A stretch of 64,000 nt of DNA from the IMG/VR virus record IMGVR_UViG_3300042889_001305. One strand, given 5' to 3'. Below are positions 2,679 to 18,774 of this stretch, piece after piece (position 1 is the stretch's first letter; every line of letters starts with the position of its first letter). The stretch is from a virus (Duplodnaviria; Heunggongvirae; Uroviricota; Caudoviricetes). The notes under the pieces were generated by a model. The model saw only the letters and a program-made list of their open reading frames with translations. It had not been told where the DNA came from and searched no databases. A program made the translations under genes and the position numbers.

Positions 2679-3065
2679 TTAAATATCCACTAGTTTTCCT
2701 TTAACCATAAATTCACTTATAAGAATCTCACTTGGAGTATAAGCTATTGCTTGATTAAATGTTATTATTATATTATTACCACTGGTTGTAACATCATATG
2801 AAGTTGGTTCTTGTAATATACCTTGTAGATATACATCTACATAATCTTTGGTATTATTAAATTTTAATTCTTCAAATTCAAATTTTTTATTAGTTAAAGT
2901 TAATGTAAATAGTGTATCAGTAAGTTCATCTAACTCCATATCATCAGTACCACCTATTAATTGGTATGAACGTCTAAATGTATCATCAAATACTTCATAT
3001 ATTAATTCCTTTACACGAGTTCTATCGTTAAAAGGAATTTTTTTTATTTTTGGTGCTACTTTCAT
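2679..3065 (-). CDS. hypothetical virion-associated protein
   Basis: 128-aa ORF tightly coupled in the neck/tail operon; GGGAG upstream. Confidence 0.6.
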   Translation of the reverse strand: MKVAPKIKKIPFNDRTRVKELIYEVFDDTFRRSYQLIGGTDDMELDELTDTLFTLTLTNKKFEFEELKFNNTKDYVDVYLQGILQEPTSYDVTTSGNNIIITFNQAIAYTPSEILISEFMVKGKLVDI

Positions 3066-3394
3066 AGTATTTCAAAATCTCCCTTCATTACAATATTATC
3101 GTTTGTAGTAATATCATATGCGTTTACAAAATTAGCTTTTTTAAATTTAACTAAAATATCTGCATTATACCCTTCCATCACATAATCTTTTTCGGATATG
3201 TATTGCCCGTTAATAAATATATCAAAACGTGCGTGTTCGCTTCGTAAAGGTCTAAGAAAGGATTCTAAATCTTTAAGTTTAGTATTTTTTGCACCCCATA
3301 CCCAATATAGTGGGTGATTCATATCCATTGGTATCAATGAATACTCATTTTGGTCTTCAATTTGTTTTAATATTTTATTTAAATCATATATCAT
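3062..3394 (-). CDS. hypothetical virion-associated protein
   Basis: 110-aa ORF with 4-nt overlaps on both sides; resembles the C-terminal region of the upstream 381-aa protein (FDIFING vs FKVYING). Confidence 0.6.
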   Translation of the reverse strand: MIYDLNKILKQIEDQNEYSLIPMDMNHPLYWVWGAKNTKLKDLESFLRPLRSEHARFDIFINGQYISEKDYVMEGYNADILVKFKKANFVNAYDITTNDNIVMKGDFEIL

Positions 3395-4536
3395 AATTCA
3401 ATAAATTTTCCAGTTACTGCTATTTCATCAGTAGTTTCTATTGGGTATCCTAATTCATCCTCATTTGGATTTTCTATAATTTCTGCACCACCAAAAACAA
3501 ATTGAATTTCATTTGTAGTAGCATCATATGAATAAGTGTATTTTCTAAATGGGATTAATACTCCATTTATATAAACCTTAAACCATTCTCCTGCAGCAAC
3601 ATATGTATTTCTCAATTCTGGCGGGCATATAGGTAGTTTTACATTGGTTAACTTAATAGTAGATGAGTTGATAAAGATTGGTGCAAATGAACTTCCCAAT
3701 ACACCACCTTGTGCCCCTCTAATAGTAATAAAATCAATTAGGTCTGAATATTCATTATACATTTGTTGTCTTGTATAATTTACATTACCACCAGATAAAT
3801 CAGTTTCTATACCCCATACTACTTTTTTAGGAGATAATGATTTTTTAGTAGTCGGTTGATTATCAAATTTTTCAGGTAGTAAATACGCATTGACTGTCAT
3901 TGTAAATGTAGTTCTTACAATTCTTTGTGCACCATCCCCTACTTCCTGTTGATTCTCGAACGAATCTATTTTTGTACGAAATTTAAAACCAGATTGGTCT
4001 CCCCAATATTCATCCGTTGCATATTGAAATGCTTCAACAATTTTATTCATATGCTCAGTAAAATCTGTCCATATAATAACATCATATGTTACACTAACAT
4101 AATCCGGCATTGTTATATTGTATTGTTCGACTGGTCTTTTAGTATCGGTCATCAAACTAAACTTATCATACTTATGTTTTTTAGAATACATAGATATGGT
4201 AGGATATGATACATGACGATTCATTGTATTAGCCAATGATTCATCTCTCGCAATTGAATTTCTTTTAAAGACAATTATTGGTGTTTGAACTTGGCCATTT
4301 TTATCTCTTAAAAAGCCATCTCTTCTTATAGCTTTCCATCTTTCTGGATTACCATATATTACAGGTACTTTTATTGATTCACCTAAGATTTCTAAACTAG
4401 GAACGACAGTATCTACCATATGTTCAGCAATTGCTAAATCAACATCATATAACTTAACTCCTTTGAACTGATTTTTAGGTTCAGTTTTAAGTTGTTCTGC
4501 TCTATTTAGTGGTTTTTTTAGTGGGTCTACTGCCAT
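3391..4536 (-). CDS. gp15: T4 gp15-like tail terminator/sheath stabiliser with C-terminal extension
   Basis: PDYVSVTYDVIIWTDFTEHMNKIVEAF and RIVRTTFTMTVNAYL segments; position after gp13/gp14-like genes. Confidence 0.6.
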   Translation of the reverse strand: MAVDPLKKPLNRAEQLKTEPKNQFKGVKLYDVDLAIAEHMVDTVVPSLEILGESIKVPVIYGNPERWKAIRRDGFLRDKNGQVQTPIIVFKRNSIARDESLANTMNRHVSYPTISMYSKKHKYDKFSLMTDTKRPVEQYNITMPDYVSVTYDVIIWTDFTEHMNKIVEAFQYATDEYWGDQSGFKFRTKIDSFENQQEVGDGAQRIVRTTFTMTVNAYLLPEKFDNQPTTKKSLSPKKVVWGIETDLSGGNVNYTRQQMYNEYSDLIDFITIRGAQGGVLGSSFAPIFINSSTIKLTNVKLPICPPELRNTYVAAGEWFKVYINGVLIPFRKYTYSYDATTNEIQFVFGGAEIIENPNEDELGYPIETTDEIAVTGKFIEL

Positions 4537-5090
4537 TAGTATGTTCTCTCCTCAATTTGAACTTGTGAACGTTTTACCATCATACCAGTAGCAACAAGTT
4601 GCATACTTGCATCTGAGAATGTGTTTGTAGATTGGTCATATATTTTTGATGAACCACCTATTAACATAGTATCCATAACATTATTTATTTCATAGTAAAA
4701 TTCATCAAACAAAATAATGTCTCCAATTTCAGGATATCCATATTGTGTATTTTGTATTGCATCTGCCGGTATTTCGTTACCATTGATATCTCGTACCTTT
4801 GGTATCTCATGTGTTCTTAATCTTTCTTTATTAAAACGGAATTCTACATTTTGTTGTGTATCCGGTCCAAATTCATCATAATTTGAAGTAGTATTCTCCC
4901 TATCAACAATACACATTAAATTAGCAGGTGCATGGTATATTTTACCCAATGATTCACCATATAAATTAGTTTTTGATTCACCAACTGATATTTTGAATAG
5001 AGTAACAGTCGTTTCCACTACATAATCTACCACTTCTTCAGCGATAGTTTTTATGAATTCCAAATCTCTACTATGAAAAAACTTTGGCAT
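4536..5090 (-). CDS. gp14: neck/head-closure protein (T4 gp14-like)
   Basis: 184 aa; NLYGES and YPEIGDIILF motifs; lies between gp13-like and gp15-like genes. Confidence 0.6.
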   Translation of the reverse strand: MPKFFHSRDLEFIKTIAEEVVDYVVETTVTLFKISVGESKTNLYGESLGKIYHAPANLMCIVDRENTTSNYDEFGPDTQQNVEFRFNKERLRTHEIPKVRDINGNEIPADAIQNTQYGYPEIGDIILFDEFYYEINNVMDTMLIGGSSKIYDQSTNTFSDASMQLVATGMMVKRSQVQIEERTY

Positions 5091-5096
5091 ATGTTA

Positions 5097-6248
5097 TTAT
5101 CCTATGTATATTGCTAATGGAACTGATTTAATTATTTTTTGTTGTTGTTCAACCATATTGGATTCATTTTCCATTCTGGTCTTTTTACTAACCTCTTCTA
5201 AGTTTTCTCTCAATTGAGTTACTAATGATTCCTTTTCAGTTTGTGCTTCTGCTCTTAGTGCTGCACCATCCAATGAAACATCAGAACCAGGAATTGGTAT
5301 AGTAGAATATTTTTCTCTAATTGCACCTAATAATTCTTTAGCAAGTGCAAGTGTGTATTTTCTAATCCATTGTTTACCAACATCATTAATTTTTGAGTAA
5401 TCTTGAAACTGATATCCAACATTTGAATAATCACTTACAACATTTGGTGTTATTATAGTATTTCCTTCTCTGAAATCCTTTTTTACCATATACTCAAACC
5501 ATAATCTTTCGGTTTTAGTTGGTATTGGGAATATTTGTATTTTATTATTGACAATATTAAAACTAAATGCGGATTTACGGAATTGGTCATTGAATTCAAT
5601 TGCTTGAATTCTTAACATATCCTCATACATTGGCATTAGAATAAATTGTGCTGCGGGTGAGAACGAACCAAACCCAAATTCATCAATTAAGTTTAATGTA
5701 CCTTGTCCAGAAACTGAATAAGGGTCAAAGAAACGAGAGATTGCAGGAGTGGCTTCGTAAAATACTTTAGTTATATCAAGTCTTTCACCACTTTCATTTA
5801 CATCACCCCATAATTCTTGTAAATCATAACTTTGAGTACCTGCCGATGCAAGGATACTTCCTCTTTTAATATCTATTCTACCACCAACATTTGCTTGAGT
5901 ACCATAACCTTCGGCAATAGTAATTACATTGTTTAATTCACTTCCTAATACTGATTTGTTGGTAAAATTTGAACTTGTGGGTTGACCTTCAAGGGCACCC
6001 ATATTGTTTCGTATGTTAAATTGATTAACTTGTGCAGAATATTCACTTACTGCCTCTTCAAACACCGCAAAGAAACTACTTGATATCAATTCTACATCTA
6101 CAATTGGATAACCCAACCTTTGTGCACACCACGATGCAACTTTAGGGGCATCTAATTGAAAGTTTGAATCATTATCATATAATCCGAATGGGGTAGATGA
6201 ACCAGTAACGAAAGTTGCCGTACCTGTCCATACTCTTGATTGCGACAT
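5097..6248 (-). CDS. gp13: neck/head-tail adaptor protein (T4 gp13-like)
   Basis: LGYPIVDVEL and WIRKYTLALAKELLGAIREKY...LDG motifs; start moved to MSQSRVW (6248), which has AAGGAG 7 nt upstream. Confidence 0.75.
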   Translation of the reverse strand: MSQSRVWTGTATFVTGSSTPFGLYDNDSNFQLDAPKVASWCAQRLGYPIVDVELISSSFFAVFEEAVSEYSAQVNQFNIRNNMGALEGQPTSSNFTNKSVLGSELNNVITIAEGYGTQANVGGRIDIKRGSILASAGTQSYDLQELWGDVNESGERLDITKVFYEATPAISRFFDPYSVSGQGTLNLIDEFGFGSFSPAAQFILMPMYEDMLRIQAIEFNDQFRKSAFSFNIVNNKIQIFPIPTKTERLWFEYMVKKDFREGNTIITPNVVSDYSNVGYQFQDYSKINDVGKQWIRKYTLALAKELLGAIREKYSTIPIPGSDVSLDGAALRAEAQTEKESLVTQLRENLEEVSKKTRMENESNMVEQQQKIIKSVPLAIYIG

Positions 6249-6294
6249 ATTTATTCTCCTTAATACATTTATTCTTATATAAATATAAAATAAC

Positions 6295-6325
6295 AAAAAA
6301 GGGAGTGAATAAATCCACTCCCTTT
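6295..6325 (-). terminator. intrinsic terminator
   Basis: GGGAGTG-8nt-CACTCCC hairpin followed by T6 on the minus strand. Confidence 0.8.
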
Positions 6326-6347
6326 CAAATCTTATGTTTTATATCTA

Positions 6348-6719: not shown

Positions 6720-6766
6720 ATAATATATCTCTTTGATAATAAGTATATACAAAGGTTAATTTAAAT

Positions 6767-6791: not shown

Positions 6792-6822
6792 AACAAATGA
6801 ACAAACAAACAAAACTAATATC

Positions 6823-7089
6823 TTAATATTCAATCATTGAGACCGGTACGTTGTATGAAGCAAACCCACCTTTTACTCTCAAATTGGCTTTAGTTCGGTT
6901 GATTTTAACAACCTCTAACTCTCTACCCATTAATTTGGGGTGATTTACTTTAACCGTCATACCTACTTGCAATGACAATTTCTTTTCTAACGATTCTATG
7001 GTACGTTTTTGTTTAATCAGTTCAATAACCATTTGGTTAACGTTACGCAATTCTGCTACTGATAATTTTGATAATTCTGAATAATTCAT
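6823..7089 (-). CDS. small hypothetical protein with KOW/SH3-like C-terminal region
   Basis: 88 aa; LQVGMTVKVNHP...VVKINRTKANLRV. Confidence 0.65.
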   Translation of the reverse strand: MNYSELSKLSVAELRNVNQMVIELIKQKRTIESLEKKLSLQVGMTVKVNHPKLMGRELEVVKINRTKANLRVKGGFASYNVPVSMIEY

Positions 7090-7112
7090 GTCTTTTATGT
7101 TTTAAATTTTAA

Positions 7113-7325
7113 TTAATCTATTTCGCCAAATACTCTAATCCATTCCTCATTGGTAATTCCCGTCATAAGGAACTCTCTTTCGTCCATTGTTAAGTTTGGA
7201 ACGATGTTTTGTATCAATTCTTTTGAATTGTAACGATTCTCTACTCTTAATAACTCATCTTGAGTAACATTGATATTCAATGTATGTTCAATACCGGTTA
7301 AACTGCTGATTTTTGTAATATTCAT
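7113..7325 (-). CDS. small conserved phage hypothetical protein
   Basis: 70 aa; LIQNIVPNLTMDEREFLMTGIT; AAAATATAAAAT initiation region. Confidence 0.7.
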   Translation of the reverse strand: MNITKISSLTGIEHTLNINVTQDELLRVENRYNSKELIQNIVPNLTMDEREFLMTGITNEEWIRVFGEID

Positions 7326-7342
7326 ATTTTATATTTTAAGGG

Positions 7343-7585
7343 TTACCAACACAACATATCTCCTGCCTTATCCCAACTTCTAGCACCACTTTCGGTTGCT
7401 TTGTGAAGTGAGTTGTAATTCACATCTAAATTAGAATTACCAAATTGACGTTTAAGTTCTGATTTAAACTCTTTAAGGTTCTTAGCCCAAATATCGTTGA
7501 ACCCACCACTTACCCAATTGAATTGGTATCGGTACTCACCTTTTGAATTTTTTAACAATCTTTCATACTTTGCTCTATGTTTCAT
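7343..7585 (-). CDS. small hypothetical protein
   Basis: 80 aa; directly downstream of the promoter at 7628-7659. Confidence 0.7.
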   Translation of the reverse strand: MKHRAKYERLLKNSKGEYRYQFNWVSGGFNDIWAKNLKEFKSELKRQFGNSNLDVNYNSLHKATESGARSWDKAGDMLCW

Positions 7586-7627
7586 ACTTTTATATTTTAT
7601 AGTTTATTATCTCTTAATCTTATAAAG

Positions 7628-7659
7628 CTAATCTACAACTTTTTTTCCACATTTCCAAA
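7628..7659 (-). promoter_or_regulatory. Bacteroidota sigma70-type (-33/-7) promoter
   Basis: TTTG-N20-TAGATTAG; part of a ~60-bp block repeated at 8245-8305. Confidence 0.65.
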
Positions 7660-7676
7660 TATTTTAGGACTTATTT

Positions 7677-7985
7677 TTATAAATAAGTTGGACCATAATG
7701 TGACCATTTAGCAGTTCCATCAAATATGTTTCCTCTACTATGTTTAGCCGGGGCTCTCCAACTGGCGGGTTTCATTAAATCACCTTTCTTAACGGGGACA
7801 CCCATATGAAATCCATCAAACATCGAAACGAACGCCCATACGTGGGTTGAATCCATAATTTTCATAAATTTAGAACCCTTTTTAATCTTTAATGGGGTAT
7901 AATCACTATAATAATCACCTGATTCGTGTCTTTTTTTACGGTCTGCATCGACCTTTGCTAACCAAATTTCAAATTGTGTTTTCAT
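7677..7985 (-). CDS. conserved phage hypothetical protein
   Basis: 102 aa; KGDLMKPASWRAPAKHSRGNIF motif typical of small jumbo-phage proteins. Confidence 0.7.
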   Translation of the reverse strand: MKTQFEIWLAKVDADRKKRHESGDYYSDYTPLKIKKGSKFMKIMDSTHVWAFVSMFDGFHMGVPVKKGDLMKPASWRAPAKHSRGNIFDGTAKWSHYGPTYL

Positions 7986-7997
7986 ATATCTTATATT

Positions 7998-8228
7998 TTA
8001 TTTTAACCATAAATTGTAAACATAATCATACTTTACATTCAAAGTCTCTGCAAGTTTCTCAAACAACCTCTCTCTCACTATACTATCAGTAACACCAATG
8101 TATCGGTAAACATCCTCACCAACAATCAGTTTATTTAATAGGCCGGGAAACGTTGGGGTTTCATTCAATTCTAATCCCAAATCATCGGTTGGGAAGTTCT
8201 CTACATAATACTCTTTAATTGTGCTCAT
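7998..8228 (-). CDS. small hypothetical protein
   Basis: 76 aa; first gene after the promoter at 8270-8301. Confidence 0.7.
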   Translation of the reverse strand: MSTIKEYYVENFPTDDLGLELNETPTFPGLLNKLIVGEDVYRYIGVTDSIVRERLFEKLAETLNVKYDYVYNLWLK

Positions 8229-8269
8229 ATCTTTTATATTTTATTTGTTTATCTCCTAATCTTATAAAG

Positions 8270-8301
8270 CTAAACTACACATTATTTTCCACAATTCCAA
8301 A
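8270..8301 (-). promoter_or_regulatory. Bacteroidota sigma70-type (-33/-7) promoter
   Basis: TTTG-N20-TAGTTTAG. Confidence 0.65.
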
Positions 8302-8340
8302 TTATTTCCCATTTATTTTCACTTTTTTTGTAAAATTTTT

Positions 8341-8386
8341 CATTGATTATCAATGAGTTATAAAAGGTTGACTATCAATAAGTTAT
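8341..8386. repeat. two imperfect 20-bp direct repeats; the first overlaps a perfect palindrome
   Basis: attgattatcaatgagttat (8342-8361) and gttgactatcaataagttat (8367-8386); CATTGAT-T-ATCAATG palindrome at 8341-8355. Confidence 0.7.
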
Positions 8387-8392
8387 GGGCAT

Positions 8393-8424
8393 AAAAAAAG
8401 GGAGAATATTTCTATTCCCCCTTC
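8393..8424 (-). terminator. intrinsic terminator after the major capsid gene
   Basis: GGGGGAATAG-AAA-TATTCTCCC hairpin plus T7 on the minus strand. Confidence 0.8.
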
Positions 8425-8459
8425 TTTATTATCGAATCGTTAGTTTGATTCAGTTAAGA

Positions 8460-10100: not shown

Positions 10101-10134
10101 TTTATTTTTTCTCCTTTGGGGTTGTTTTTTTTGT

Positions 10135-11250: not shown

Positions 11251-11400
11251 TTGTTTTCTTCCTTTACTTTTTTTTCTGAAAATATTGAGTGATTTTCAAT
11301 CGAATTGATTAAGTTAGTTGTTCGGTGACCTCACATAAGGGTGGGTATTCATTAACCAACGGGATAAAATTAAACCTACATTGAGTAGGTTATTATAGAA

Positions 11401-11408
11401 ATAAATAT
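11401..11408 (-). promoter_or_regulatory. putative late promoter ATATTTAT (head operon)
   Basis: Same octamer is intergenic and sense-oriented at 6279, 11789, 18749, 20561, 27863, 48645, 49746 and 58400 (minus) and 58427 (plus). Confidence 0.55.
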
Positions 11409-11448
11409 ATAAATGTTTACGAAACCGCAAAATTTATGTAAAATATTT

Positions 11449-11751
11449 TTAATCTCTTGAGGTGTCTTTATCTGATTGAGGTGTTTTTTTACTAACTTTC
11501 TTTTTCTTTTTAGTAAAAAACCTAATCGTTCTATCACCATCTGCAATCTTACTGAGAGCAACTCTTTTTTGCTCTTCTCTGATTGCCTTTTGTTTTTGTA
11601 ATCTTCTTTTTGTAGTAGGTTTAACGTATTCCTTTCTTTCTCTTAGTTCTAAGAGGTGTCCAGATTCCATAACCTTTTTTTTGAATTTTTTTAAAGCCTT
11701 TGCAATGTCTCCATTACGAACTTCGACTGTAATCCTTGCTAATCCGCTCAT
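11449..11751 (-). CDS. rpsU: phage-encoded 30S ribosomal protein bS21 with basic C-terminal extension
   Basis: VEVRNGDIAKALKKFKKKV...LELRERKEYVKPTTKRR matches the bS21 signature. Confidence 0.9.
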   Translation of the reverse strand: MSGLARITVEVRNGDIAKALKKFKKKVMESGHLLELRERKEYVKPTTKRRLQKQKAIREEQKRVALSKIADGDRTIRFFTKKKKKVSKKTPQSDKDTSRD

Positions 11752-11808
11752 TAATTGTATTTAAATTGTGTTTGTAACTTATTTGGTAATAAATATGTCT
11801 TTTATAAA

Positions 11809-13368
11809 TTATTTGCTTAAAAGGAACAATGCTTCTTCAGCTTCTTGTTGATTTTTAATCTTTGGGTCTTTATACATATCTACTTTATATCCTCTTAACG
11901 CATTTGATAAGAATATCATATACTTAGGATGTCCTAATTTTTCTTCTAATGTAGAAAGTGAATCATAGAATGATTGTTCATTTCCTTTATTCATTTTTTC
12001 TGCTGCTTTGAATTCTTCTTTATGTTTATCAATATATGATGCAGTTGAATCTTTATATCCATATGCTGCTTCTTTATTTATTTTTTTACCTGCAGCCACT
12101 GCATCTTTATATGCATCCGAATTTTTATGTGCCGGTGCTTCGCCTCTAGCTTTTTTAGCTCGGATATTTGCCCAAAGACCAGGTTTTTCTTCTTTTATAG
12201 ATTCTTTGAATAGATTTGTAATTATTCCACCTGAAACGTAATCAGGTAACATTTTTTCTAAATCTTTATGGGATACTTTACCCATTTTTTCAACTTTATC
12301 TGCGAAAGCCTTAGTTGATTGATTTTTTCTCATTTTATTTGCAATGAGTTTTGCATCAACTTTTTTATCAGAAACTTCTTCGTTTACGGATTCTGTTTCT
12401 AATTCATTTGCAGGTACTTCAATTGAATAGTATTGGCCAATATCTACGATATAAAATGGAGAACCGGGTGTTTTACCATCAAAACGAACAATTTTACCAG
12501 ATTTACCGCCACGAAGTTTTACTTTTGTTCCTGGTTTTAAAATTGGTTTTGCTTCTTCGTTTACTTTACCACAATCAACACAATTAGTTTTAGATTCTTC
12601 TAATGGCCATTGTTTCAACCACTTTAACCACTCTTTAGTATTCCAATCGTTTCTTTGTCTTGCATCTACTTTCCAGTATTTTGCAAATACATCTTTTAAT
12701 TCTGATTTGTAATTAGCAAAACCGGGTATTTTAGATGTAATGTTTACAAATTCATTTGCACTAGCGTAATGTTCCATTGAGTTAGATAACATATCTACTA
12801 ATGCTAACATTGCTTTATCATTACCTAACGCTTCGTTTACTGATTCATTCTTTGGAACACAATTAGGAACTTGAGCACCACCTTTACCTGGTTTCATTCC
12901 TATCATCTCATATCCTTTCCAACATGGGTCTTTCTCCCCACCTTGTAATTTACCATCTTCTCTCAATCCCAAACGTTCTCTCATTTGTTCTTCAGAAATT
13001 TCACCAATTTTATAGTAACGAGATAGGATATGTCCCATATCTTCGTATAATCCATGTAATCTTTGGTCTAAGTTCTTTGCTTCTATTGCAACTTGGTCGA
13101 ATGATTTACCTAATTTGGTTAATTCATTCATATTACGTTTAACAGTATGTGCATCAAACCAATCATCTGCTTCGTTTACCGCCAATTCTCTAGCTGCATC
13201 GGTAATGCCACCTAAAGTTTCTGCTATCTCAGTAATATCTGATTTTCTATCCATCATTTCTTGATACTTGTTGTATGTAGAAACGATTTCTAAGAAATGT
13301 TTTTTTACTTCGTTAGAAAATCTTTTTGGTTCTTCACCTTCTTTAACTATCTTTGATAAACGTATCAT
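11809..13368 (-). CDS. modular head-associated (internal) polyprotein
   Basis: N-terminus MIRLSKIVKE; modules (DPCWKGY...VPNCV, KOW-like, GLWANIRAKK) separated by ESVNE/ESIKE. Confidence 0.6.
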   Translation of the reverse strand: MIRLSKIVKEGEEPKRFSNEVKKHFLEIVSTYNKYQEMMDRKSDITEIAETLGGITDAARELAVNEADDWFDAHTVKRNMNELTKLGKSFDQVAIEAKNLDQRLHGLYEDMGHILSRYYKIGEISEEQMRERLGLREDGKLQGGEKDPCWKGYEMIGMKPGKGGAQVPNCVPKNESVNEALGNDKAMLALVDMLSNSMEHYASANEFVNITSKIPGFANYKSELKDVFAKYWKVDARQRNDWNTKEWLKWLKQWPLEESKTNCVDCGKVNEEAKPILKPGTKVKLRGGKSGKIVRFDGKTPGSPFYIVDIGQYYSIEVPANELETESVNEEVSDKKVDAKLIANKMRKNQSTKAFADKVEKMGKVSHKDLEKMLPDYVSGGIITNLFKESIKEEKPGLWANIRAKKARGEAPAHKNSDAYKDAVAAGKKINKEAAYGYKDSTASYIDKHKEEFKAAEKMNKGNEQSFYDSLSTLEEKLGHPKYMIFLSNALRGYKVDMYKDPKIKNQQEAEEALFLLSK

Positions 13369-13378
13369 TTATTATCTC

Positions 13379-14650
13379 CTATTTTACTAATTTTGCTAAT
13401 TTTATTGATTCTGATTTAAATGGATTAAATAATCCTCTATTATTTACTTCCTTTTCAGTAGATGGTGCAACTTTTGCATTTTGTTGGTGTTTGTTCTTTA
13501 TTGGATTATATTTTTCCAATTCATCAACATTAACATTACCATCTGCATCGGTCTTAACCTCACCCGATTTATCATCACCCATTCTTACAATACCAACTGT
13601 CTTAGTTCTTTTGTTATAAACTAAATCATCTTTTTTGAATTTACCTTCCTTTACCATTTTAGTTAAAGAAATTCTACCTTCATTCTTTTTAACTGGCTCA
13701 TATCCCCTGTCAACTTTATCTTTTTTCTTAGCATCAGAGTCTTGTACACCCGGTTCATTTGGTTCATTATCATCAAAATCTATTGTATCCTTTTCAGCAG
13801 GAGTTCCCATTTGTTTACCATACATAGATGTAACATGATGTTGATTAAAATCTTGTTCTGCTTCACTATCTTCAGTATTAGAAAGACCTGTATTAAAATG
13901 TTTAGGTTCGTCTTCATTAACCATTTTGGTCAAAGAAATTCTACCTTCATTCTTCATATATGGTTTATTATCAAATACTGATTGAATTAAATCCGCTTCT
14001 TTATGAAATCCATTCATCCTTAATGTAAATGCTATACCATCTGCTGCATCGACTCCGTCCCATCCTGATGCTTGTGATACATCCGTACCATAATCATCAA
14101 TCTCACCAGTTCCGTTCATATAAACCGAACCATCTGCCGAATTCTTACGAATATCATCCATTTTCTCTTTATACTTAGGGTCTTTGATTGATGGGTATTC
14201 AGGTTTCTTTGCAAACTCAGGTTTCCCTTCAATTGCTGCCACTAATTCTCTTGCTTCACTATGGAAGTTTGAATCAGTTAGTGCAGAAACTGCTGCTTGA
14301 AACATTGCTTCTTTATATTTTTCATTACCCAACTTTTGTGGAGTAATTCCTGATTTCTCAGCTAATTTCTTAGCATCTTTATTTACTTTTGGATTACCTG
14401 GTCTTTTCTTTTTAGGTTCTGATGTTGGTGTATCAGCTTTAGGTTCTTCTGCAGGAGTATTAAATATATTTGCAGTTGGTGTAGATGCCTTTTTAGAAGT
14501 ATCACCCCCTTTACCATCTGCTTTTGAGTGAGTTCCTGCTTTGATTGCAGAATCTCTACTATCCTTTGATTTGAACACCGATGTTTTACCGGTCTTCTTA
14601 TTAGTAGCAGTAAACGTTTCTTCGTTAAGTAAATTATTTAATTTAATCAT
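13379..14650 (-). CDS. modular head-associated (internal) polyprotein
   Basis: N-terminus MIKLNNLLNE; internal KNEGRISLTKMV(N/K)E repeated twice (near-identical DNA around 13654 and 13921); ends ESIKLAKLVK. Confidence 0.6.
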   Translation of the reverse strand: MIKLNNLLNEETFTATNKKTGKTSVFKSKDSRDSAIKAGTHSKADGKGGDTSKKASTPTANIFNTPAEEPKADTPTSEPKKKRPGNPKVNKDAKKLAEKSGITPQKLGNEKYKEAMFQAAVSALTDSNFHSEARELVAAIEGKPEFAKKPEYPSIKDPKYKEKMDDIRKNSADGSVYMNGTGEIDDYGTDVSQASGWDGVDAADGIAFTLRMNGFHKEADLIQSVFDNKPYMKNEGRISLTKMVNEDEPKHFNTGLSNTEDSEAEQDFNQHHVTSMYGKQMGTPAEKDTIDFDDNEPNEPGVQDSDAKKKDKVDRGYEPVKKNEGRISLTKMVKEGKFKKDDLVYNKRTKTVGIVRMGDDKSGEVKTDADGNVNVDELEKYNPIKNKHQQNAKVAPSTEKEVNNRGLFNPFKSESIKLAKLVK

Positions 14651-14669
14651 TAGTTGATGTTCCTATATT

Positions 14670-15110
14670 TTAAAATCCTATTGAGACCGTTTTGTTGTCA
14701 AATTCTATCCAACGTATTTTTAGTGAAATTAATAATTTCAAATCACTAACATCCATTCTCCAATTTTTTTCTGCCATTTCAATATCAGCGATATTACCAT
14801 GAATACCATCCCAAATTGTAATAACTTTACCATTAAAGAATTTTAAGAATTGTTGTACTTGTTTTTGTTTAGCAGCATCTAATTCTTTTAATTCAATTTC
14901 CGATGCTTCTTTAATTACCCTTTTAGTTTCAGTTAATACAGTTTTATGTGTATAAAGGTCTAACTTACCATCGGCTTTAATCTTAACCTCATAGTTAGTC
15001 TTACGAATATCGTTATGACCACCCTTAAAAGGTGTATCACCAACTTCTTTCTTAATACTACCCATTTCTATTTTGTTATCTCTTAGATAATCTTGTATTG
15101 AAAATGCCAT
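14670..15110 (-). CDS. head-module hypothetical protein
   Basis: 146 aa; AAAGGA upstream; contains VLTE/VIKE sites. Confidence 0.6.
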   Translation of the reverse strand: MAFSIQDYLRDNKIEMGSIKKEVGDTPFKGGHNDIRKTNYEVKIKADGKLDLYTHKTVLTETKRVIKEASEIELKELDAAKQKQVQQFLKFFNGKVITIWDGIHGNIADIEMAEKNWRMDVSDLKLLISLKIRWIEFDNKTVSIGF

Positions 15111-15120
15111 ATTGTATCCT

Positions 15121-15720
15121 TTATGCTAATTCAGTAATGATTTCTCTCATAAGGTCTTGTGCCTTACAATACTCACCACAAACTATAGCTTGTTCTTTTA
15201 ATTGTCTATTTACTGATTCGTTCATCGTAACCGGTGTCATAAATGCACCATGTGTAGATGGGTTAGAAACAAAATCCCAACCAATCAGTTCAAAATCATC
15301 ACCCACTTTTACTTTACCTTCGCCAATGTTAACTACCGAACCCATACCACGAGAGGAAATACCCAAAAGGATACCTGCTCTTAATAATTCTTTTAAGATG
15401 TTACCGGATGGAGTTGGTAAAATTTCTACTGTCCCACAAAGGTCATCACCTTCCCAATGAATTTCTTTTACGTTATGTGAAACATTCTTTAAATTGATAA
15501 TACCAGAATCTGGGTGGTCTAATTCCCCTAATGCACGTCTTTCTTTAATAAGAACTTCGTATTTCTTTGCTTCACGCATTAGGATTTCTTTAGGGTATAT
15601 ACGACCATTTTGGTTTTCTGCAACCGCTCTTTGAAGAATACCTTTAACTAAGGTTCTACCACTTGAATCTTCATTCAATTTTCCTTCAAATAATGTTGTT
15701 TCTATTAATAAATTTTTCAT
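15121..15720 (-). CDS. gp21: prohead core protease (T4 gp21 family)
   Basis: NQNGRIYP, RALGELDHP, GISSRGMGS and DFVSNPS motifs; start taken at MKNLLIE, coupled to the upstream stop codon (TAATG). Confidence 0.95.
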   Translation of the reverse strand: MKNLLIETTLFEGKLNEDSSGRTLVKGILQRAVAENQNGRIYPKEILMREAKKYEVLIKERRALGELDHPDSGIINLKNVSHNVKEIHWEGDDLCGTVEILPTPSGNILKELLRAGILLGISSRGMGSVVNIGEGKVKVGDDFELIGWDFVSNPSTHGAFMTPVTMNESVNRQLKEQAIVCGEYCKAQDLMREIITELA

Positions 15721-15896
15721 TATGCTCCCCAAGTTTTTCTCTTTTTAAAGAGGTCAAAAAATATTGCAGATACTTCTCTACGAATGATATCACGAATAAG
15801 TTTTTCATCCTCAGTTGTGATTTCTTCTTTGACGATACCCCATTTTACTTTGGTTATCTCTTCGTTAATGATATCTAACAATCTTTTTCGTGTCAT
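15720..15896 (-). CDS. 58-aa hypothetical protein missing from the ORF track (MTRKRLLDIINEEITKVKWG...KRKTWGA)
   Basis: Hand-translated; fills the gap exactly and its TAA overlaps the gp21 ATG. Confidence 0.75.
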   Translation of the reverse strand: MTRKRLLDIINEEITKVKWGIVKEEITTEDEKLIRDIIRREVSAIFFDLFKKRKTWGA

Positions 15897-15898
15897 TG

Positions 15899-16357
15899 TT
15901 ATTTTTTCTTTACTGATTCTACTATATGTAGAACAAAATCACCATTACCATTTGATTTTACTACTTTATATTCCTTTTTCTTACCACCGGAATTAATAGT
16001 AATTTTTTCACCCACTTTAAGTGCGTTTTTATCACCAGTTTTTAATATAGCAGGTCCATCGTAATCTTCGTTTACTTTTTTACCAGCTCTTAAATCTGCT
16101 AAATCATCACTACCGATATCACCATCTTTATCAACATCTAATTTCTTTTGACCGCCCACTAATTCTTCATTCTTCTCGCCCTTACCATTCCATGCTGCAT
16201 CAATTTTATCAAAGAATGCTTTCTTTTCTTCATCTGACATAGATGGAATTGATTTTCCAGCTTTATCTAATGCTTTTTGAAAGAATTCCTGATATTCATT
16301 TTCTTCAGTCATTACTCCTTTGATGATTTCTTTTAATCTTGTACGTGATATTTTCAT
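15899..16357 (-). CDS. head-associated protein with EF-hand/dockerin-like loop
   Basis: 152 aa; LDVDKDGDIGSDDLADLR; N-terminus MKISRTRLKEIIKGVMTE. Confidence 0.6.
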   Translation of the reverse strand: MKISRTRLKEIIKGVMTEENEYQEFFQKALDKAGKSIPSMSDEEKKAFFDKIDAAWNGKGEKNEELVGGQKKLDVDKDGDIGSDDLADLRAGKKVNEDYDGPAILKTGDKNALKVGEKITINSGGKKKEYKVVKSNGNGDFVLHIVESVKKK

Positions 16358-17856
16358 TATTTTTCTATCTCCTGTATTGTTTTCGCTATGTTGATTAATC
16401 GTTCCTTTATCTTATAAATATGTCCGTGCGTTCTTTTCCAAAATGTATCGGAACTCAATTCATTCATAGTCTTAATTTGATTATACCAACGGAAAAAAGT
16501 TTCAACCTCTTTTAATTGATATTTTAATTCTCTCAAACCAGTCGCTAACTTCTTATTAGCATGCATTGATTCATCATTTTTTAATTCTAACCAACGATTT
16601 ACCGGTCTTTGAATTCGTTTTCCCTCTGATAAACTCTCATCCATATGTTCCAAACCATATTTCATAATAGTTTTATCATCTAACATCTTACCATTAAGAG
16701 TAAACATACGTTTACCTTTATAATAAACTGACCAATTACCTTGTGGGGTTGCATCGACAGTGATATTCTTTAAATCCTTTATACTTCTATCATTAACTTG
16801 AATAGCATCTAAGAATTTTTCTGCTTTAGGGTCTAATGCTTCGTTTACTGATTCATTTGTTGATACAAATAATCTTACTGAAAGAATTACATCTTTATCT
16901 ATATTTAAACTTCTTACTTTATTTTTTTCTAAATCGTAAGCCGGATTGATTGTATTTGCTCTTGCAATTACACCATCTTTAATAAAATGTGGCTGTAATC
17001 CAGAGTAGTTATCATCTCTAAACATAAAAACATCTTTAGGAGAATCCTTAGATATTTTAATTATTTTCTTTAAACCTTCTTTACCAATAAAGCATCCACC
17101 TTCACATTTACTTCCACCATAAGTTTTACCTTTTTGTAATGATGCTTCGTTTACTGATTCAAATAATGCTCTGTCTCCACTAATATCCTGTTTATCAAAA
17201 TATGCTATTTTCTTTTTACCTTTTTCTATTTGATATACCTTCCATCCTTTGTTGGTTGGTTCAATTAGTTCTATCTCAATATTTGGATTATGTTTATGAG
17301 TAAGTTTATCTCCTGATTTATTTGCTTCGTTTACTGATTCTTTTAGTTTACTTACATAATCTGCTACAACATCATTAACTGTCTTTTGTATCAATTGTAA
17401 GTATTTTGGGTCATCTTCGGTTCGTACTCTTACAGCGGTTTTACCCTGTTGTGTTAATTTTAATGCTACCTTTCCATTAGCATGTGTTAAATTATAATGC
17501 CTAACATCTAATGTATAGTTTTTAAGTTTTTCTGCCATTTTTAAACCAACAGATACATCTGCATGACCTAATTTTTGTTGTGGTAAACTCGATGCGGGGG
17601 TTGTACTAATAATATAATCCGGTGATTTGAATTTTGCTTCATTTACCGATTCATCAATATTATTAATATCATTATTTACTAATGTATAACCGAATTGTGT
17701 TGCAGTTTTTTTTCTTTTTTTATCAGAATTTTTACCAGAAAAGGCATGAGGAGTATCATAGCCATCAACATTACCTGTCACATTGGCTTCATCTAATTCA
17801 TCTTCGACTTCCTTAATAAGTTCGTCTATAAAAGATTTAATATTTTTTTCTGACAT
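16357..17856 (-). CDS. modular head-associated polyprotein with four ESVNEA linkers
   Basis: 499 aa; LDE-ANVTGNVDGYDTPHAF N-terminal module; 4x ESVNEA plus ESLSE. Confidence 0.65.
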   Translation of the reverse strand: MSEKNIKSFIDELIKEVEDELDEANVTGNVDGYDTPHAFSGKNSDKKRKKTATQFGYTLVNNDINNIDESVNEAKFKSPDYIISTTPASSLPQQKLGHADVSVGLKMAEKLKNYTLDVRHYNLTHANGKVALKLTQQGKTAVRVRTEDDPKYLQLIQKTVNDVVADYVSKLKESVNEANKSGDKLTHKHNPNIEIELIEPTNKGWKVYQIEKGKKKIAYFDKQDISGDRALFESVNEASLQKGKTYGGSKCEGGCFIGKEGLKKIIKISKDSPKDVFMFRDDNYSGLQPHFIKDGVIARANTINPAYDLEKNKVRSLNIDKDVILSVRLFVSTNESVNEALDPKAEKFLDAIQVNDRSIKDLKNITVDATPQGNWSVYYKGKRMFTLNGKMLDDKTIMKYGLEHMDESLSEGKRIQRPVNRWLELKNDESMHANKKLATGLRELKYQLKEVETFFRWYNQIKTMNELSSDTFWKRTHGHIYKIKERLINIAKTIQEIEK

Positions 17857-18706
17857 TGGTTATTTCCTTTATTAATTCATATGATAGCATCAACGCTGAA
17901 ACCTGTTCATCCGTAATTTTTTTTCCTATCTTTTGTGTTTTTAAAACATTGATAGTTTCTTTTAATTTAATTTTTGTGATTTTATCATTAACTTCGGAAT
18001 GTAATTTGTGAAGTTCAGTTACTACTTTCTTTAATTGTGAATCGTAGTATTCACCGAATTTAGATGTATTATTAACATTATTAATAAATTCTCTTAAAAG
18101 ACCTTTTTGGTCGTCGTTTAAGTTAGTGTATTTACTATTAAATGTTTCAACTAGTATTTTATATGTCAACAATCTCAAATCCTTTTCTTGATTCTTATAT
18201 GTTTCCATTAATTTATCTTCAATCTTCTTAATAGATGTTTGGGTTGTAGATACGTGTTCTACTAATGTAATCTTAGCATCAAATACATCCTTAACATTAG
18301 TTACATCTTGTATCTTTGCTTCAAAAATCTTATGAACCGATGCTAATACTCTATAATTAGAAACAGGAGAAGCAACAAATTCTTCAATATCGAAATTTTC
18401 TTTAATAGCTTTTACTAAGTTATACTTTTCTCTTAATAATTTAGTTTCATCTAATTTAGTACGAGTTTCGATAATAGCATCAATAAATTTTTCTGCTTTA
18501 CTTTCTGAATTATATTTTTCAGTTGTAAGTAAATTGAATAAACGCAATTCCTTTGCTAATTCGGTTTTACCACCAAAAAATTCTTGTACTATTTTTTTAG
18601 CCTTCTCAACTGGAGCATTATTTAAAATCTCCAATGTGATTTGACGAGTTAAGAGTTCAAATAAAAACCCTGTATTTTTAAATTTCGAATGTTTAATTTT
18701 TTTCAT
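17837..18706 (-). CDS. conserved helical head-module protein
   Basis: 289 aa; KKIKHSKFKNTGFLFELL N-terminus; lies between the portal and protease genes. Confidence 0.6.
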   Translation of the reverse strand: MKKIKHSKFKNTGFLFELLTRQITLEILNNAPVEKAKKIVQEFFGGKTELAKELRLFNLLTTEKYNSESKAEKFIDAIIETRTKLDETKLLREKYNLVKAIKENFDIEEFVASPVSNYRVLASVHKIFEAKIQDVTNVKDVFDAKITLVEHVSTTQTSIKKIEDKLMETYKNQEKDLRLLTYKILVETFNSKYTNLNDDQKGLLREFINNVNNTSKFGEYYDSQLKKVVTELHKLHSEVNDKITKIKLKETINVLKTQKIGKKITDEQVSALMLSYELIKEITNVRKKY

Positions 18707-18774
18707 TGTATTTTAAATCCTTATTTTGATAGACTCAAATTTCTATATATAAATATAAAAAATTCTAAGTTAGA

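Follow-up and report, generated by a model that had tools for sequence, protein, structure and literature searches.

Shine-Dalgarno motifs confined almost entirely to virion-module genes of a bS21-encoding lake phage: a possible re-tuning of host ribosomes

In Flavobacterium johnsoniae, Tyr54 of ribosomal protein bS21 stacks on A1534 and Ile55 touches the anti-Shine-Dalgarno (anti-SD) tail (Jha 2021, PMC7797042), and the state of bS21 (absent, truncated, or Tyr54Ala) sets anti-SD pairing and thereby which mRNAs are favored (PMC7797042; PMC9976891). With Tyr54Ala, protein output from a strong-SD mRNA rises 3-fold in vitro and by 70% in vivo; in the wild-type, adding an SD reduces output (McNutt 2023, PMC9976891). 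Flavobacteriales genomes carry SDs below chance, and usually only rpsU has a strong one (PMC9976891). The specialized ribosomes and rpsU autoregulation of F. johnsoniae (PMC7797042, PMC9976891) involve the same site and logic that we propose here for a phage, but they represent host feedback on one gene with an SD of 9-13 bp, whereas the phage case would involve a bS21 paralogue, a dozen or more genes, and SDs of 5-7 nt.

Several phages and one other bacterium offer further comparisons. The huge phages of freshwater Bacteroidota (Chen et al. 2022, ISME Commun, PMC9723584) are, like ours, large lake phages with a predicted Bacteroidota host. Their bS21 gene also lies amid those for TerL, portal, prohead protease, and MCP; it is expressed with the late structural genes, as appears to be the case here, and its product was likewise proposed to substitute into host ribosomes and favor phage mRNAs. 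The two systems differ in that bS21 lies on the opposite strand there and on the same strand here; in that those phages were reported to have an aromatic residue at the Tyr54 position, thought to be host-like, where ours has Arg-Glu; and in that SD sites of phage genes, analyzed here, are absent from that analysis. Pelagibacter phage HTVC008M is also a T4-like aquatic myophage encoding bS21, and incorporation of its bS21 into E. coli ribosomes has been demonstrated (Mizuno et al. 2019, as cited in PMC9976891). It differs from ours in phage family (TerL about 31% identical or less, outside the best matches listed) and in having an alphaproteobacterial host; 38% of its genes, counted over all genes, carry SD-like sites. 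In Francisella tularensis, alternative bS21 proteins similarly produce heterogeneous ribosomes and affect a subset of mRNAs (Trautmann et al. 2022, PMC9578407), but these are chromosomal paralogues in an SD-using gammaproteobacterium with no anti-SD sequestration. Flavobacterium phage vB_FspM_immuto (MW353175) shares the head-module gene order (TerL 57% identical in amino acids, MCP region about 72% in nucleotides), yet its 160-kb genome lacks bS21 and has no SD on any head gene.

The window analyzed here, a 64,000-nt stretch of IMG/VR record IMGVR_UViG_3300042889_001305, probably comes from a T4-like phage of lake water, about 250-290 kb in size, whose host belongs to the Bacteroidota and is probably a flavobacterium. 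The host assignment comes from promoters of the form TTTG-N20-TAnnTTTG, the Bacteroidota sigma-A consensus, reported to be inactive with the sigma-70 holoenzyme (PMC6847099). One of these, in the form TTTG-N20-TATCTTTG, precedes the primase gene.

62796-62827, minus strand: Bacteroidota-type sigma-A promoter TTTGGAAATCTCATAAATTTGTTGTATCTTTG (-33 TTTG, -7 TAnnTTTG), upstream of primase; host marker

Nearer the primase ATG lies another copy that is imperfect (-7 box TATCTTTA). The complete relative G002 has 19 intergenic copies, all on the coding strand, and none on the opposite strand of the same intergenic regions; its primase ortholog has a copy 16 nt before the gene. When TTTG-N18-22-TAnnTTTG was counted in the G002 intergenic regions, we found 15 occurrences compared to 0.2 by shuffling, and TTGACA-N17-TATAAT pairs numbered 0. 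These promoters indicate that the host is most likely a member of the Bacteroidota, as an earlier sequence-only reading of this DNA had assumed.

The head module encodes a genuine bS21, a member of PF01165, as that reading had also held.

11449-11751, minus strand: phage ribosomal protein bS21 (P0001), 100 aa, PF01165 at 55.7 bits (cut-off 27)

The assignment is further supported by the PHROG ribosomal protein S21 family and by matches to solved bS21 chains, including 7jil_z. When aligned to the F. johnsoniae chain (7jil_z; columns typed by hmmalign), phage residues Arg58-Glu59 correspond to Tyr54-Ile55; the phage protein thus carries an Arg-Glu substitution at the tail-contacting residues. 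Its C-terminal extension is Lys-rich (residues ~60-100, with KKKKK at 81-85). Neither bS18 nor bS6, the proteins that form most of the pocket for the tail, has a gene in the window, a point against re-tuning by bS21. The leader of bS21 itself has no SD (dG +2.3), but its 57-nt upstream spacer holds a ATATTTAT motif, and bS21 and its supposed target genes have a ATATTTATA-type upstream motif in common; judging from this arrangement, bS21 appears to be transcribed together with them.

We scored as SD-like any duplex with ACCUCCUUU of -4.5 kcal/mol or stronger, using ATG-based starts. Every SD site that had been listed from the sequence is present; the list also gives portal and large terminase, which have none:

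3079-3084, minus strand: SD-like AGGGAG, 13 nt upstream of the 128-aa gene (2679-3065), dG -8.7; within the upstream gene
4548-4553, minus strand: SD GAGGAG, 11 nt upstream of the gp15-like 381-aa gene (3391-4536), dG -8.6; within the 3' end of the upstream gene
6256-6262, minus strand: SD TAAGGAG, 7 nt upstream of the gp13-like head-tail adaptor gene (5097-6248), dG -8.2
10111-10117, minus strand: SD AAAGGAG, 10 nt before the ATG of the MCP gene (8460-10100), dG -8.9
11258-11265, minus strand: SD AAAGGAAG, 7 nt upstream of the scaffold-like 371-aa gene (10135-11250), dG -5.7
13376-13381, minus strand: SD TAGGAG, 7 nt upstream of the 519-aa head polyprotein gene (11809-13368), dG -7.3
14660-14665, minus strand: weak SD TAGGAA, 9 nt upstream of the 423-aa gene (13379-14650), dG -4.2, which misses the threshold
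15117-15122, minus strand: SD AAAGGA, 6 nt upstream of the 146-aa gene (14670-15110), dG -5.5
15725-15730, minus strand: SD GGGGAG, 4 nt upstream of the prohead protease gene (15121-15720), dG -7.0
16369-16373, minus strand: SD AGGAG, 11 nt upstream of the 152-aa gene (15899-16357), dG -7.4
17864-17870, minus strand: SD AAAGGAA, 7 nt upstream of the 499-aa head polyprotein gene (16357-17856), dG -5.7
18718-18723, minus strand: SD-like TAAGGA, 11 nt upstream of the 289-aa gene (17837-18706), dG -4.9
18775-22162, minus strand: portal (18775-20505) and large terminase (20579-22162), A/T-rich leaders with no SD
58385-58390, minus strand: SD-like AAAGGA, 5 nt upstream of the 1856-aa tail fibre/baseplate gene (52809-58379), dG -5.6

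The sites are 5-7 nt long with a dG of about -5 to -9 and a spacing of 4-13 nt. Gene identities follow from PHROG 138 for MCP (E 8e-73), PHROG 207 for the protease (E 1e-48; true start ATG 15720), PHROG 211 for the gp13-like gene (true start ATG 6248; the L108 ortholog matches PF26809 Phage_T4_gp13), and PHROG tail fibre families plus PF13884 for the 1856-aa gene. The 519-aa polyprotein contains two ESVNE linkers and the 499-aa polyprotein five ESVNE/ESLSE linkers. Portal (PHROG 213; leader dG +2.0) and large terminase (PHROG 2; +1.2) belong to the late, low-copy or non-virion genes. No SD precedes portal, TerL, bS21, primase, the SbcC/Rad50-like gene, or the small-gene island, in agreement with the earlier description, nor does one precede any glycan gene in the window or the replication genes. 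One proposed site adds nothing of its own: the TAGGA before the gp14-like gene is made up of the closing codons and stop that are conserved in the gp13-like gene (YATAGGATAA), and relatives without SDs have it too.

Computing the SD:anti-SD free energy by gene class, we found SD-like sites on 12/19 virion-module genes compared to 1/39 other genes (Fisher p = 6.3e-7; Mann-Whitney p = 4.6e-7), so the claim that these motifs are almost limited to virion-module genes stands. The chance rate is about 17% (16.6% for random positions, 16.8% for internal ATGs); virion genes lie above it (binomial p = 7e-6) and the other genes below it (p = 0.007). The sole match among the latter, a 284-aa gene (start 47746), has a GGGG run 17 nt upstream that is implausible as an SD. 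In the window and four relatives, GGAG/AGGA/GAGG motifs start at -15 to -11 at 0.186 per gene per nt compared to 0.002-0.012 elsewhere, a peak 15-50 times background. We considered whether the missing SDs could be an artefact of start calling and rejected this idea; alternative in-frame starts had an SD in 6/52 cases, compared to 6.2 by chance.

Such a pattern might also arise if the host read SDs normally but, like Pelagibacterales, restricted them to genes of high expression, with the phage copying its host and no reprogramming involved. A 23-kb contig in a Pelagibacterales MAG is indeed colinear with window 27-42 kb at 65-85% nucleotide identity. Pelagibacterales have SD-like sites at 16% overall (chance) and at 45-58% in ribosomal-protein operons, Arg likewise occupies the Tyr54 position of their bS21, and the bS21-encoding pelagiphage HTVC008M (PMC9976891) shows SD-like sites at the rate given above. 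However, Bacteroidota-specific promoters lie before the window primase and at 19 places in G002, the closest cultured relative, immuto, infects Flavobacterium, and non-virion leaders are SD-depleted in the window (4%) and in immuto (4%) compared to Pelagibacterales contigs (16%). AT-rich phage contigs readily end up in the wrong bin beside AT-rich genomes. The MAG contig is probably a mis-binning, and we consider a host of this kind quite improbable.

The SDs are conserved in relatives. MCP has a GGAG or GGA core in L001-L006, L108, and L109, with different flanks. The scaffold-like gene has AAGGAAGG or TAGGAAGG, the 499-aa gene AAAGGA(A/G), and the gp13-like gene AAAGGAG, AAGGAA, or AGAGGAAAG. 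The 519-aa gene keeps ATAGGAGAAT in L001, L108, L109, and L111 despite unrelated sequence upstream; the protease has AAAGGA, TAAGGA, or TAGGGA in leaders that are otherwise unalignable. We found CAGGAGAT before the 152-aa gene in L108, L109, and L111, TAAGGAA before the 146-aa gene in L108, AGAGGATAG before the gp15-like gene in L108 and L109, and GAGGGAGA (L109) or GAAGGAGA (L003) before the 128-aa gene. The site of the 289-aa gene is retained in L108 and L111 but gone in L109 (AAAGAA). Portal and terminase leaders of L108, L109, and L111 likewise have no SD. Overall, the presence or absence of an SD agrees gene by gene across L001, L108, L109, L111, and G001, whose proteins are about 60-85% identical. 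In the near-identical relative G001, TAGGAG precedes both tail sheath (PHROG 23, E 8e-71) and tube (E 1e-31); two of its three fibre-like genes have no SD and the third a weak TAGGAA (dG -4.2), and a hub-like gene has AAAGG at most. The earlier description of the SD-bearing genes as high-copy is therefore only roughly right: the low-copy fibre-like genes of G001 lack an SD or have only a weak match, but strong sites precede the neck genes (gp13-like and gp15-like).

This conservation bears on two further explanations. If the purine-rich motifs were functionless leftovers of an SD-using ancestor, one might point to distant relatives (clade A of the MCP tree and Mel-JY01) with SDs on most genes, and to a conserved core module that could lose its SDs last. 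But the motifs persist at the right distance at the protease and 519-aa genes while the leaders diverged beyond alignment, indicating that they are under selection and not left over. Portal and TerL, equally ancient, are SD-less in every clade member and SD-bearing in Mel-JY01, and the positional peak is likewise unexpected for relics; this explanation is largely refuted and we give it very little weight. It is similarly far-fetched, in our judgment, that the motif is read by a factor other than 16S rRNA, such as a phage translational regulator that binds RNA or a factor that acts on late leaders to set RNA stability. T4-type phages do use RegA-type translational regulators, and many sites fit (A/T)TAGGAGA(A/T)AA(T)AAA-ATG, which could be a protein site. 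Yet nothing is invariant except the GGA/GGAG core, which can pair with CCUCC, the 4-13 nt spacing is SD-like, and the variation of the core between orthologs (GGGGAG, AAAGGA, TAGGGA) is easier to reconcile with RNA pairing than with a fixed protein site.

Comparison across relatives relates SD use to the type of bS21. Where the background is SD-poor (SDs on no more than 20% of other genes), all five loci with SDs on at least 80% of virion genes, namely the window, L001, L109, L046, and L078, encode a non-aromatic bS21; among loci without bS21 at the canonical site, 0/14 exceed 45% virion SDs, the loci in this comparison being phylogenetically non-independent. L108 (10/10 virion SDs) and L111 (5/6) likewise have a bS21 of the Arg type, though with backgrounds of 23% and 33%. 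Small ~33-kb phages with a Tyr/Phe-type bS21 have no SD on structural genes. The association has exceptions. Within the same well-supported MCP clade, four sister lineages carry bS21 at the same site yet are devoid of SDs (L010, L014, and L017 with Arg, L015 with His), so a non-Tyr bS21 is not tied to SD use; L018, L020, and L013, for example, have an SD-like site before MCP with no bS21 at the canonical site. SD-rich relatives (Microcystis phage Mel-JY01 and clade A of the MCP tree) carry bS21 at the same position; the gene therefore predates any unmasking role and did not arise for it.

These exceptions separate the two features and favor an explanation in which the SDs are read by host ribosomes that lack bS21 or whose tail is freed in another way, for example if infection halts host rpsU expression while bS21 dissociates. 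The phage bS21 would then do something else, for example maintain ribosomes in general or select mRNAs by way of its divergent N-terminal helix, the part for which Chen 2022 argued specificity (PMC9723584). A natural F. johnsoniae subpopulation of bS21-free ribosomes does read SDs better (PMC9976891). On the other hand, bS21-free ribosomes are poor except on very strong SDs (PMC9976891), and every strongly SD-positive virion module in an SD-poor background has a non-aromatic bS21. With both contact residues lost, the phage protein is also hard to see as tail-sequestering, and one that did sequester the tail would oppose the phage's own SD mRNAs. We regard this explanation as unlikely, but worth more than those above.

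Our preferred reading, which we hold tentatively, is that the phage re-tunes host ribosomes with its own bS21 for its SD-bearing late virion mRNAs. The SD pattern, its canonical position, and its conservation under selection are observed; what is inferred is that the phage protein enters host ribosomes, frees the tail, and raises translation. The idea is coherent, and we found no paper that states it. Since an added SD lowers output in wild-type F. johnsoniae and Flavobacteriales avoid SDs, a dozen conserved SDs would be costly unless read. As a counterpoint, the phage SDs (5-7 nt, dG -5 to -9) fall short of the 9-13 bp of rpsU, and in F. johnsoniae, Tyr54Ala or truncated bS21 gave a gain only for a strong AGGAGGU or rpsU-type SD; a weak SD (AGGA) was unresponsive in Tyr54Ala, truncated, or depleted backgrounds, and the weak-SD m291 did worse (PMC9976891).

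As we picture it, the anti-SD tail of 16S rRNA in the host ribosome would be buried by bS21, bS18, and bS6 so that SDs are normally ignored, and the A/T-rich, SD-free leaders of most phage genes would suit this ribosome. SDs would be reserved for the late proteins made in the largest amounts: capsid, scaffold, protease, head internal polyproteins, neck, and the sheath and tube, whose genes would lie just beyond the window. The phage bS21, made from the same late module with an SD-free leader, may keep the ribosome-binding core while bringing Arg-Glu and a long basic tail. bS21 is loosely bound and exchangeable (PMC9578407); if it exchanges on the mature 30S, accumulating phage bS21 could displace host bS21, and the anti-SD tail would be set free, or freed more easily. 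Because bS21 is apparently co-transcribed with its supposed targets, any switch would be gradual. Converted ribosomes would be predicted to gain in initiation on virion mRNAs that carry SDs and to lose on host and early mRNAs that do not.

The window has a G+C content of 31% and carries all of its real genes on the minus strand; no tRNA genes were found in it. Family searches gave the following layout, listed from high to low coordinates.

Gene layout of the window
Highest-coordinate end, minus strand: primase and an SbcC/Rad50-like gene
After the primase and SbcC/Rad50-like gene, minus strand: 1856-aa tail fibre/baseplate gene
27988-51180, minus strand: sugar-nucleotide/glycosyltransferase island, 23 kb
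20579-22162, minus strand: TerL
18775-20505, minus strand: portal
Between portal and prohead protease, minus strand: a run of unnamed head genes
15121-15720, minus strand: prohead protease
11449-11751, minus strand: bS21
After bS21, minus strand: scaffold-like gene, then the major capsid protein (MCP) at 8460-10100
After MCP, minus strand: five small genes and a DUF5856 gene
Lowest in this order, minus strand: gp13-like, gp14-like and gp15-like neck genes

Among cultured phages, Flavobacterium phage vB_FspM_immuto (57% aa identity) and Microcystis phage Mel-JY01 (55%) are closest by TerL, and the window phage is present in lake metagenomes of many studies. Genome-wide tests were run on two relatives: G001, a 69.5-kb fragment that is 93-97% identical to the window and extends 23.7 kb further downstream, and G002, a complete genome of 252.6 kb whose MCP is 71% identical to the window's.

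To score Shine-Dalgarno (SD) sites, we set gene starts without reference to SDs, taking the first ATG per frame (TTG-extended frames were moved to ATG 6248 and ATG 15720), and then paired the 21-nt stretch preceding each one with the 16S tail ACCUCCUUU to obtain a duplex energy. At a cut-off of -4.5 kcal/mol, a site precedes 12 of 19 virion-module genes (63%) and 1 of the 39 remaining genes (Fisher p = 6e-7). Random coding-strand positions and positions before internal ATGs reach this score at a rate of 17%; relative to this null, virion genes are enriched (p = 7e-6) and other genes are depleted (p = 0.007). The sequence-only reading had held that SDs are nearly confined to virion genes, and the SD:anti-SD free energies computed here by gene class uphold that view. 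The sites in the 12 genes have energies of -4.9 to -8.9 and cores (GGAG, AGGAG, AAGGAG, GAGGAG, AAAGGA) that can pair over 4-5 nt or more with the CCUCC core at the 3' end of 16S rRNA. They also lie where SDs should, about 5-13 nt upstream of the start and above chance: in the window and four relatives, the 5' ends of GGAG, AGGA and GAGG fall between -15 and -11 in virion genes at 0.186 per gene per nt, compared to 0.002-0.012 elsewhere between -60 and +60, a peak 15-50 times background. By sequence and position the purine motifs of the virion genes are SD sites, and they are predicted to act in initiation.

The sole SD-like hit among the other genes lies 17 nt ahead of its start and is a run of GGGG, implausible as an SD. 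We also rejected the idea that mis-called starts mask SDs in non-virion genes; alternative in-frame starts with an SD number 6 of 52, with 6.2 expected by chance. One site proposed earlier, the AGGA before the gp14-like gene, is discounted because the TAGGA there belongs to the end of the gp13-like reading frame, its conserved final codons and stop codon; it is also found in relatives that have no SDs.

Several features of the window stand apart from the SD sites. The glycan island (27988-51180) encodes epimerases, RmlC, radical-SAM enzymes, glycosyltransferases, a 2OG-Fe oxygenase and a 1650-aa cytidylyltransferase fusion; gene by gene, its aa identity between the window and G001 runs from 35 to 99%, and none of its genes has an SD. 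An ES(V/I/L)(N/S)E pentapeptide is repeated five times in the 499-aa protein (16357-17856) and twice in the 519-aa protein (11809-13368), and it occurs twice, as ESINE, in the 1650-aa protein (22888-27840). The 519-aa and 423-aa proteins have an MI(R/K)L-type N-terminus in common. The five genes of the small-gene island (6823-8460) have near-identical SD-free leaders, TAAAATATAAAAG(A/T)-ATG, and a repeat of about 55 nt (TTGTAGWTTAGCTTTATAAGATTARGAGATAA...) lies upstream of those starting at 8228 and 7585. Terminators made of a G+C-rich hairpin and a T run follow MCP, the 88-aa gene and the DUF5856 gene.

The gene-by-gene SD pattern is repeated in G001 and in the related loci L001, L108 (which derives from a 286-kb contig), L109 and L111. 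In these relatives, SDs are present before the 289-aa, 499-like, 152-like, protease, 146-aa, 519-like, scaffold-like, MCP, gp13-like, gp15-like and 128-like genes, and absent before TerL, portal, bS21, the small genes, DUF5856 and the sugar genes. This conservation in orthologues is independent of the flanks. The protease leader reads CTTGGGGAGCATA in the window and ATATAAAGGATAGAT, AAATAAGGATTAAA or AAATAGGGATTAAA in relatives, and the 519-like leaders have ATAGGAGAAT in common with unrelated sequence upstream of it. Because the SD is kept while the surrounding leader changes, we can rule out that these sites are simple leftovers. In G001, TAGGAG precedes both the tail sheath (PHROG 23, E 8e-71) and the tail tube (E 1e-31) genes; two of the three fibre-like genes have no SD and the third a weak TAGGAA (dG -4.2), and the hub-like gene has a weak AAAGG at most. 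G002 is a weaker example than the window clade: SD-like sites occur on 16% of its ORFs, near chance, and are scattered among small early ORFs rather than confined to virion genes.

The phage bS21 that the earlier proposal noted next to the virion genes was confirmed. The 100-aa product of 11449-11751, encoded between the protease and the scaffold-like gene and MCP, scores 55.7 bits against PF01165 (cut-off 27), with residues 8-59 covering profile positions 1-53 of 55, and matches 24 distinct bS21 chains from solved ribosomes (E <= 0.01), including those of E. coli and F. johnsoniae (7jil_z). According to Jha et al. (PMC7797042), Tyr54 of the F. johnsoniae protein stacks on A1534 at the bend that leads the 16S tail into the bS6/bS18 pocket, Ile55 makes further van der Waals contacts, and the C-terminal part of Bacteroidota bS21 is unusually non-basic. 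When P0088, a phage homologue of the Tyr type, is aligned to 7jil_z, its Tyr coincides with Tyr54, and the window protein aligns to P0088 free of gaps from the KP motif onward, so that Arg58 falls in the Tyr54 column and Glu59 in the Ile55 column. The Bacteroidota signature (Tyr54, Ile55 and a weakly basic C-terminal part) is thus absent from the window bS21, whose C-terminal part is basic, is extended by about 35 residues and includes a KKKKK run. The Arg is invariant in 70 close homologues. Since this column is also Arg in Pelagibacterales bS21 and Lys in E. coli, the window protein is of the general bacterial type, not the Bacteroidota type. Its own gene start has no SD (dG +2.3), which is what bS21 would need if unconverted ribosomes must make it.

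Related bS21 genes occur in other settings. A group of ~33-kb phages with Terminase_3 and Peptidase_S78_2 (proteins P0069, P0073 and P0076-P0094; loci L102-L107 and L110) carries a bS21 that matches the window's at ~70% identity over the N-terminal half and is Bacteroidota-like in the C-terminal half (KPSVVKR...Y/F); one of these loci, L110, has an Arg-type protein. From these halves and the Arg in L110, bS21 looks mosaic and exchanged between unrelated phage types. The bS21 of G002 (G002:C1:211139-211399, L082) lies about 100 kb from the head module, beside a homologue of the window's 869-aa gene. A tblastn search of a phage collection with the window bS21 gave no match, though Mel-JY01 has a divergent annotated RpsU.

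How the SD pattern is to be read depends on the host. Upstream of the primase we found a Bacteroidota sigma-A type promoter, TTTGGAAATCTCATAAATTTGTTGTATCTTTG (TTTG-N20-TATCTTTG; 62796-62827, minus strand), a perfect copy of the consensus, with a second, near-perfect one closer to the primase ATG, at about 62730-62760; the tail-fibre gene has a CGTATATTTG box some 90 nt ahead of it (58469-58480). The consensus of -33 TTTG and -7 TAnnTTTG belongs to the Bacteroidota sigma-A factor (PMC6847099) and is the reported cause of the failure of E. coli genes to be expressed in Bacteroidota, and the reverse (PMC6847099, PMC9723704). In intergenic regions of G002, TTTG-N18-22-TAnnTTTG occurs 15 times on the coding strand and never on the other strand, with 0.2 expected; the exact form TTTG-N19-21-GTATATTTG occurs 14 times forward and never in reverse. 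Genome-wide, G002 has 19 near-identical copies that are intergenic or overlap a gene edge; all are on the coding strand, and most read TTTGG-N15-TTCGTATATTTG. All but three end 5-44 nt before a start, one precedes the primase orthologue, and the genes downstream are without SDs. They are of the type expected for early promoters of a Bacteroidota phage.

A Pelagibacterales host would also accommodate part of the data. L113, a 23-kb contig deposited in a Pelagibacterales MAG (G006:C6, VHCC01000006.1), is colinear with the glycan island at 65-85% nt identity to the window, with one epimerase 93% identical at the aa level; moreover, SD-like sites in Pelagibacterales are at chance overall but occur on about half of ribosomal-protein-operon genes, so that SDs stand only where expression is high, a pattern equal to the window's. 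This alternative has to contend with the Bacteroidota-type promoters of both the window and G002, where the sigma-70 pair TTGAC-N16-19-TAnAAT has no occurrences. It also sits poorly with the depletion of SD-like sites in non-virion leaders, 4% of which have one in the window as in the Flavobacterium phage immuto, the nearest cultured relative; Flavobacteriales genomes are likewise depleted (PMC9976891). We have largely set a Pelagibacterales host aside, and L113 is in all likelihood of phage origin, placed by a binning error with an AT-rich genome. Homologue look-ups (Atlas) of RmlC and an epimerase returned viral clusters only, and a search for the T9SS tail domain (PF18962) gave no matches, nor did its controls. 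Taken from the promoters, the SD-depleted leaders and the kinship to immuto, a Bacteroidota host, the premise of the earlier proposal, is very probable.

The late genes carry a different upstream element. A ATATTTATA / TATATTTATATA motif lies in the intergenic spacers before the starts at 49738, 48519, 27840, 22834, 20505, 18706, 11751, 11250, 6248 and 58379. It is strongly strand-biased, with intergenic counts of 24 in G002 (1.6 expected) and 9 in G001 (0.5 expected), and is a candidate late promoter that differs from T4's TATAAATA in coding-strand reading. The motif is found upstream of SD-bearing and SD-free late genes alike. That bS21, portal and the SD-bearing operons have it in common suggests one late transcription class, so any switch would be gradual and not ahead of late expression. 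RNA-library contigs from four lake libraries cover bS21, the scaffold-like gene and MCP, one of them spanning 10050-11928; their depth cannot rank genes and RNA libraries can contain DNA, making them a weak sign that the head module, including bS21, is transcribed in lakes.

We propose that a phage bS21 without the sequestering residues would, late in infection, make SD-blind Bacteroidota ribosomes into SD-reading ones, and that the converted ribosomes would form a private translation channel for virion mRNAs, placing SD-less host messages at a disadvantage. Published work offers this idea a direct precedent. With F. johnsoniae bS21 carrying Tyr54Ala or missing residues 43-64, translation of strong-SD mRNA improves 3- to 5-fold in vitro; in vivo, reporters with a strong SD rise by 70% to over 2-fold, and SD-less reporters are unchanged or lower; in wild-type cells, adding an SD lowers output (PMC9976891). 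bS21 is also late-assembling, loosely bound and exchangeable (PMC9578407). If selection maintains a dozen SDs in such a host, as it does here, part of the ribosomes must be reading them in infected cells; the obvious candidate for the cause is the Tyr-less phage bS21. The same F. johnsoniae study also bears against this link: a weak AGGA site had no effect, weak-SD mRNA initiated worse with the variants, and the host mechanism was judged to need 9-13 bp of pairing (PMC9976891). The phage SD sites are 5-7 nt long, so the phage bS21 would have to outdo Tyr54Ala; its basic tail might perhaps provide the extra effect, which is pure conjecture on our part.

Comparison across relatives gives a mixed picture. 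In the MCP tree, the window clade (8 rows, support 100/98) is nested in a larger clade (100/99) that has bS21 in every member where this could be checked. Within the larger clade, position 54 is Arg in the window clade, G002 and the loci L010, L014 and L017, His in L015 and Tyr in L009. SDs are found on 80-100% of virion genes in the window clade, on 4 of 9 in G002/L006 and on 2 of 7 in L009; L010 and L014-L017 have none on theirs. In the sister clade (27 rows), bS21 is missing from the canonical site and SDs are few, although several members have one before MCP. A third clade, including Mel-JY01, has SDs on most genes of all classes, and position 54 of its bS21 is Leu, Ala, Val, Arg or Tyr. 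The ~33-kb phages with Tyr or Phe at this position have no SD on structural genes, and immuto has neither bS21 nor SDs. All strongly SD-positive virion modules in an SD-poor background come with a non-aromatic bS21, but the converse fails; this association, resting on about one to three independent clades, is suggestive. Two of the loci behind it, L046 and L078, may just be SD-using lineages sampled with few genes. The Arg-type relatives without SDs, together with the weak-SD reporter results, are real evidence against a causal link. The enrichment of SDs, the Bacteroidota host and the non-sequestering bS21 rest on sequence analysis, and the earlier proposal is supported in part; we hold it possible, at a little under even confidence, that the phage bS21 drives translation of the SD-bearing virion genes; the whole conversion reading, with its private channel, is slightly more doubtful.

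The arrangement resembles the bS21 phages of Chen et al. (PMC9723584), in which bS21 also lies within a TerL-portal-protease-MCP block; the window order is TerL, portal, ..., protease, ..., bS21, scaffold-like, MCP. In those phages, however, bS21 is on the strand opposite the structural genes and has an aromatic residue at 54, whereas the window's is on the same strand and has Arg. Chen et al. concluded from the retained aromatic residue that the protein acts like the host's (PMC9723584). Structural, rpsU-autoregulation and phage-bS21 papers have already been published; in full-text searches we found no paper on SDs confined to the virion genes of bS21 phages, none proposing anti-SD unmasking by a phage bS21 and none assigning a molecular function to a phage ribosomal protein. 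If true, the proposed role would be the first such function assigned.

The buried anti-SD of Bacteroidota, under bS21 control, left the question of whether anything besides rpsU exploits the switch. The window joins this question to that of a function for phage ribosomal proteins, offering a defined set of SD-bearing and SD-free phage leaders together with a bS21 minus the two tail-contacting residues, and genetic and in vitro systems for a test exist in F. johnsoniae. If the proposal is refuted, it would still have to be explained why selection keeps a dozen SDs in a host blind to them. If it is confirmed, the exchange of a single ribosomal protein would clearly be a means by which a virus resets the choice of mRNAs, and possibly a tool for orthogonal expression in Bacteroidota.
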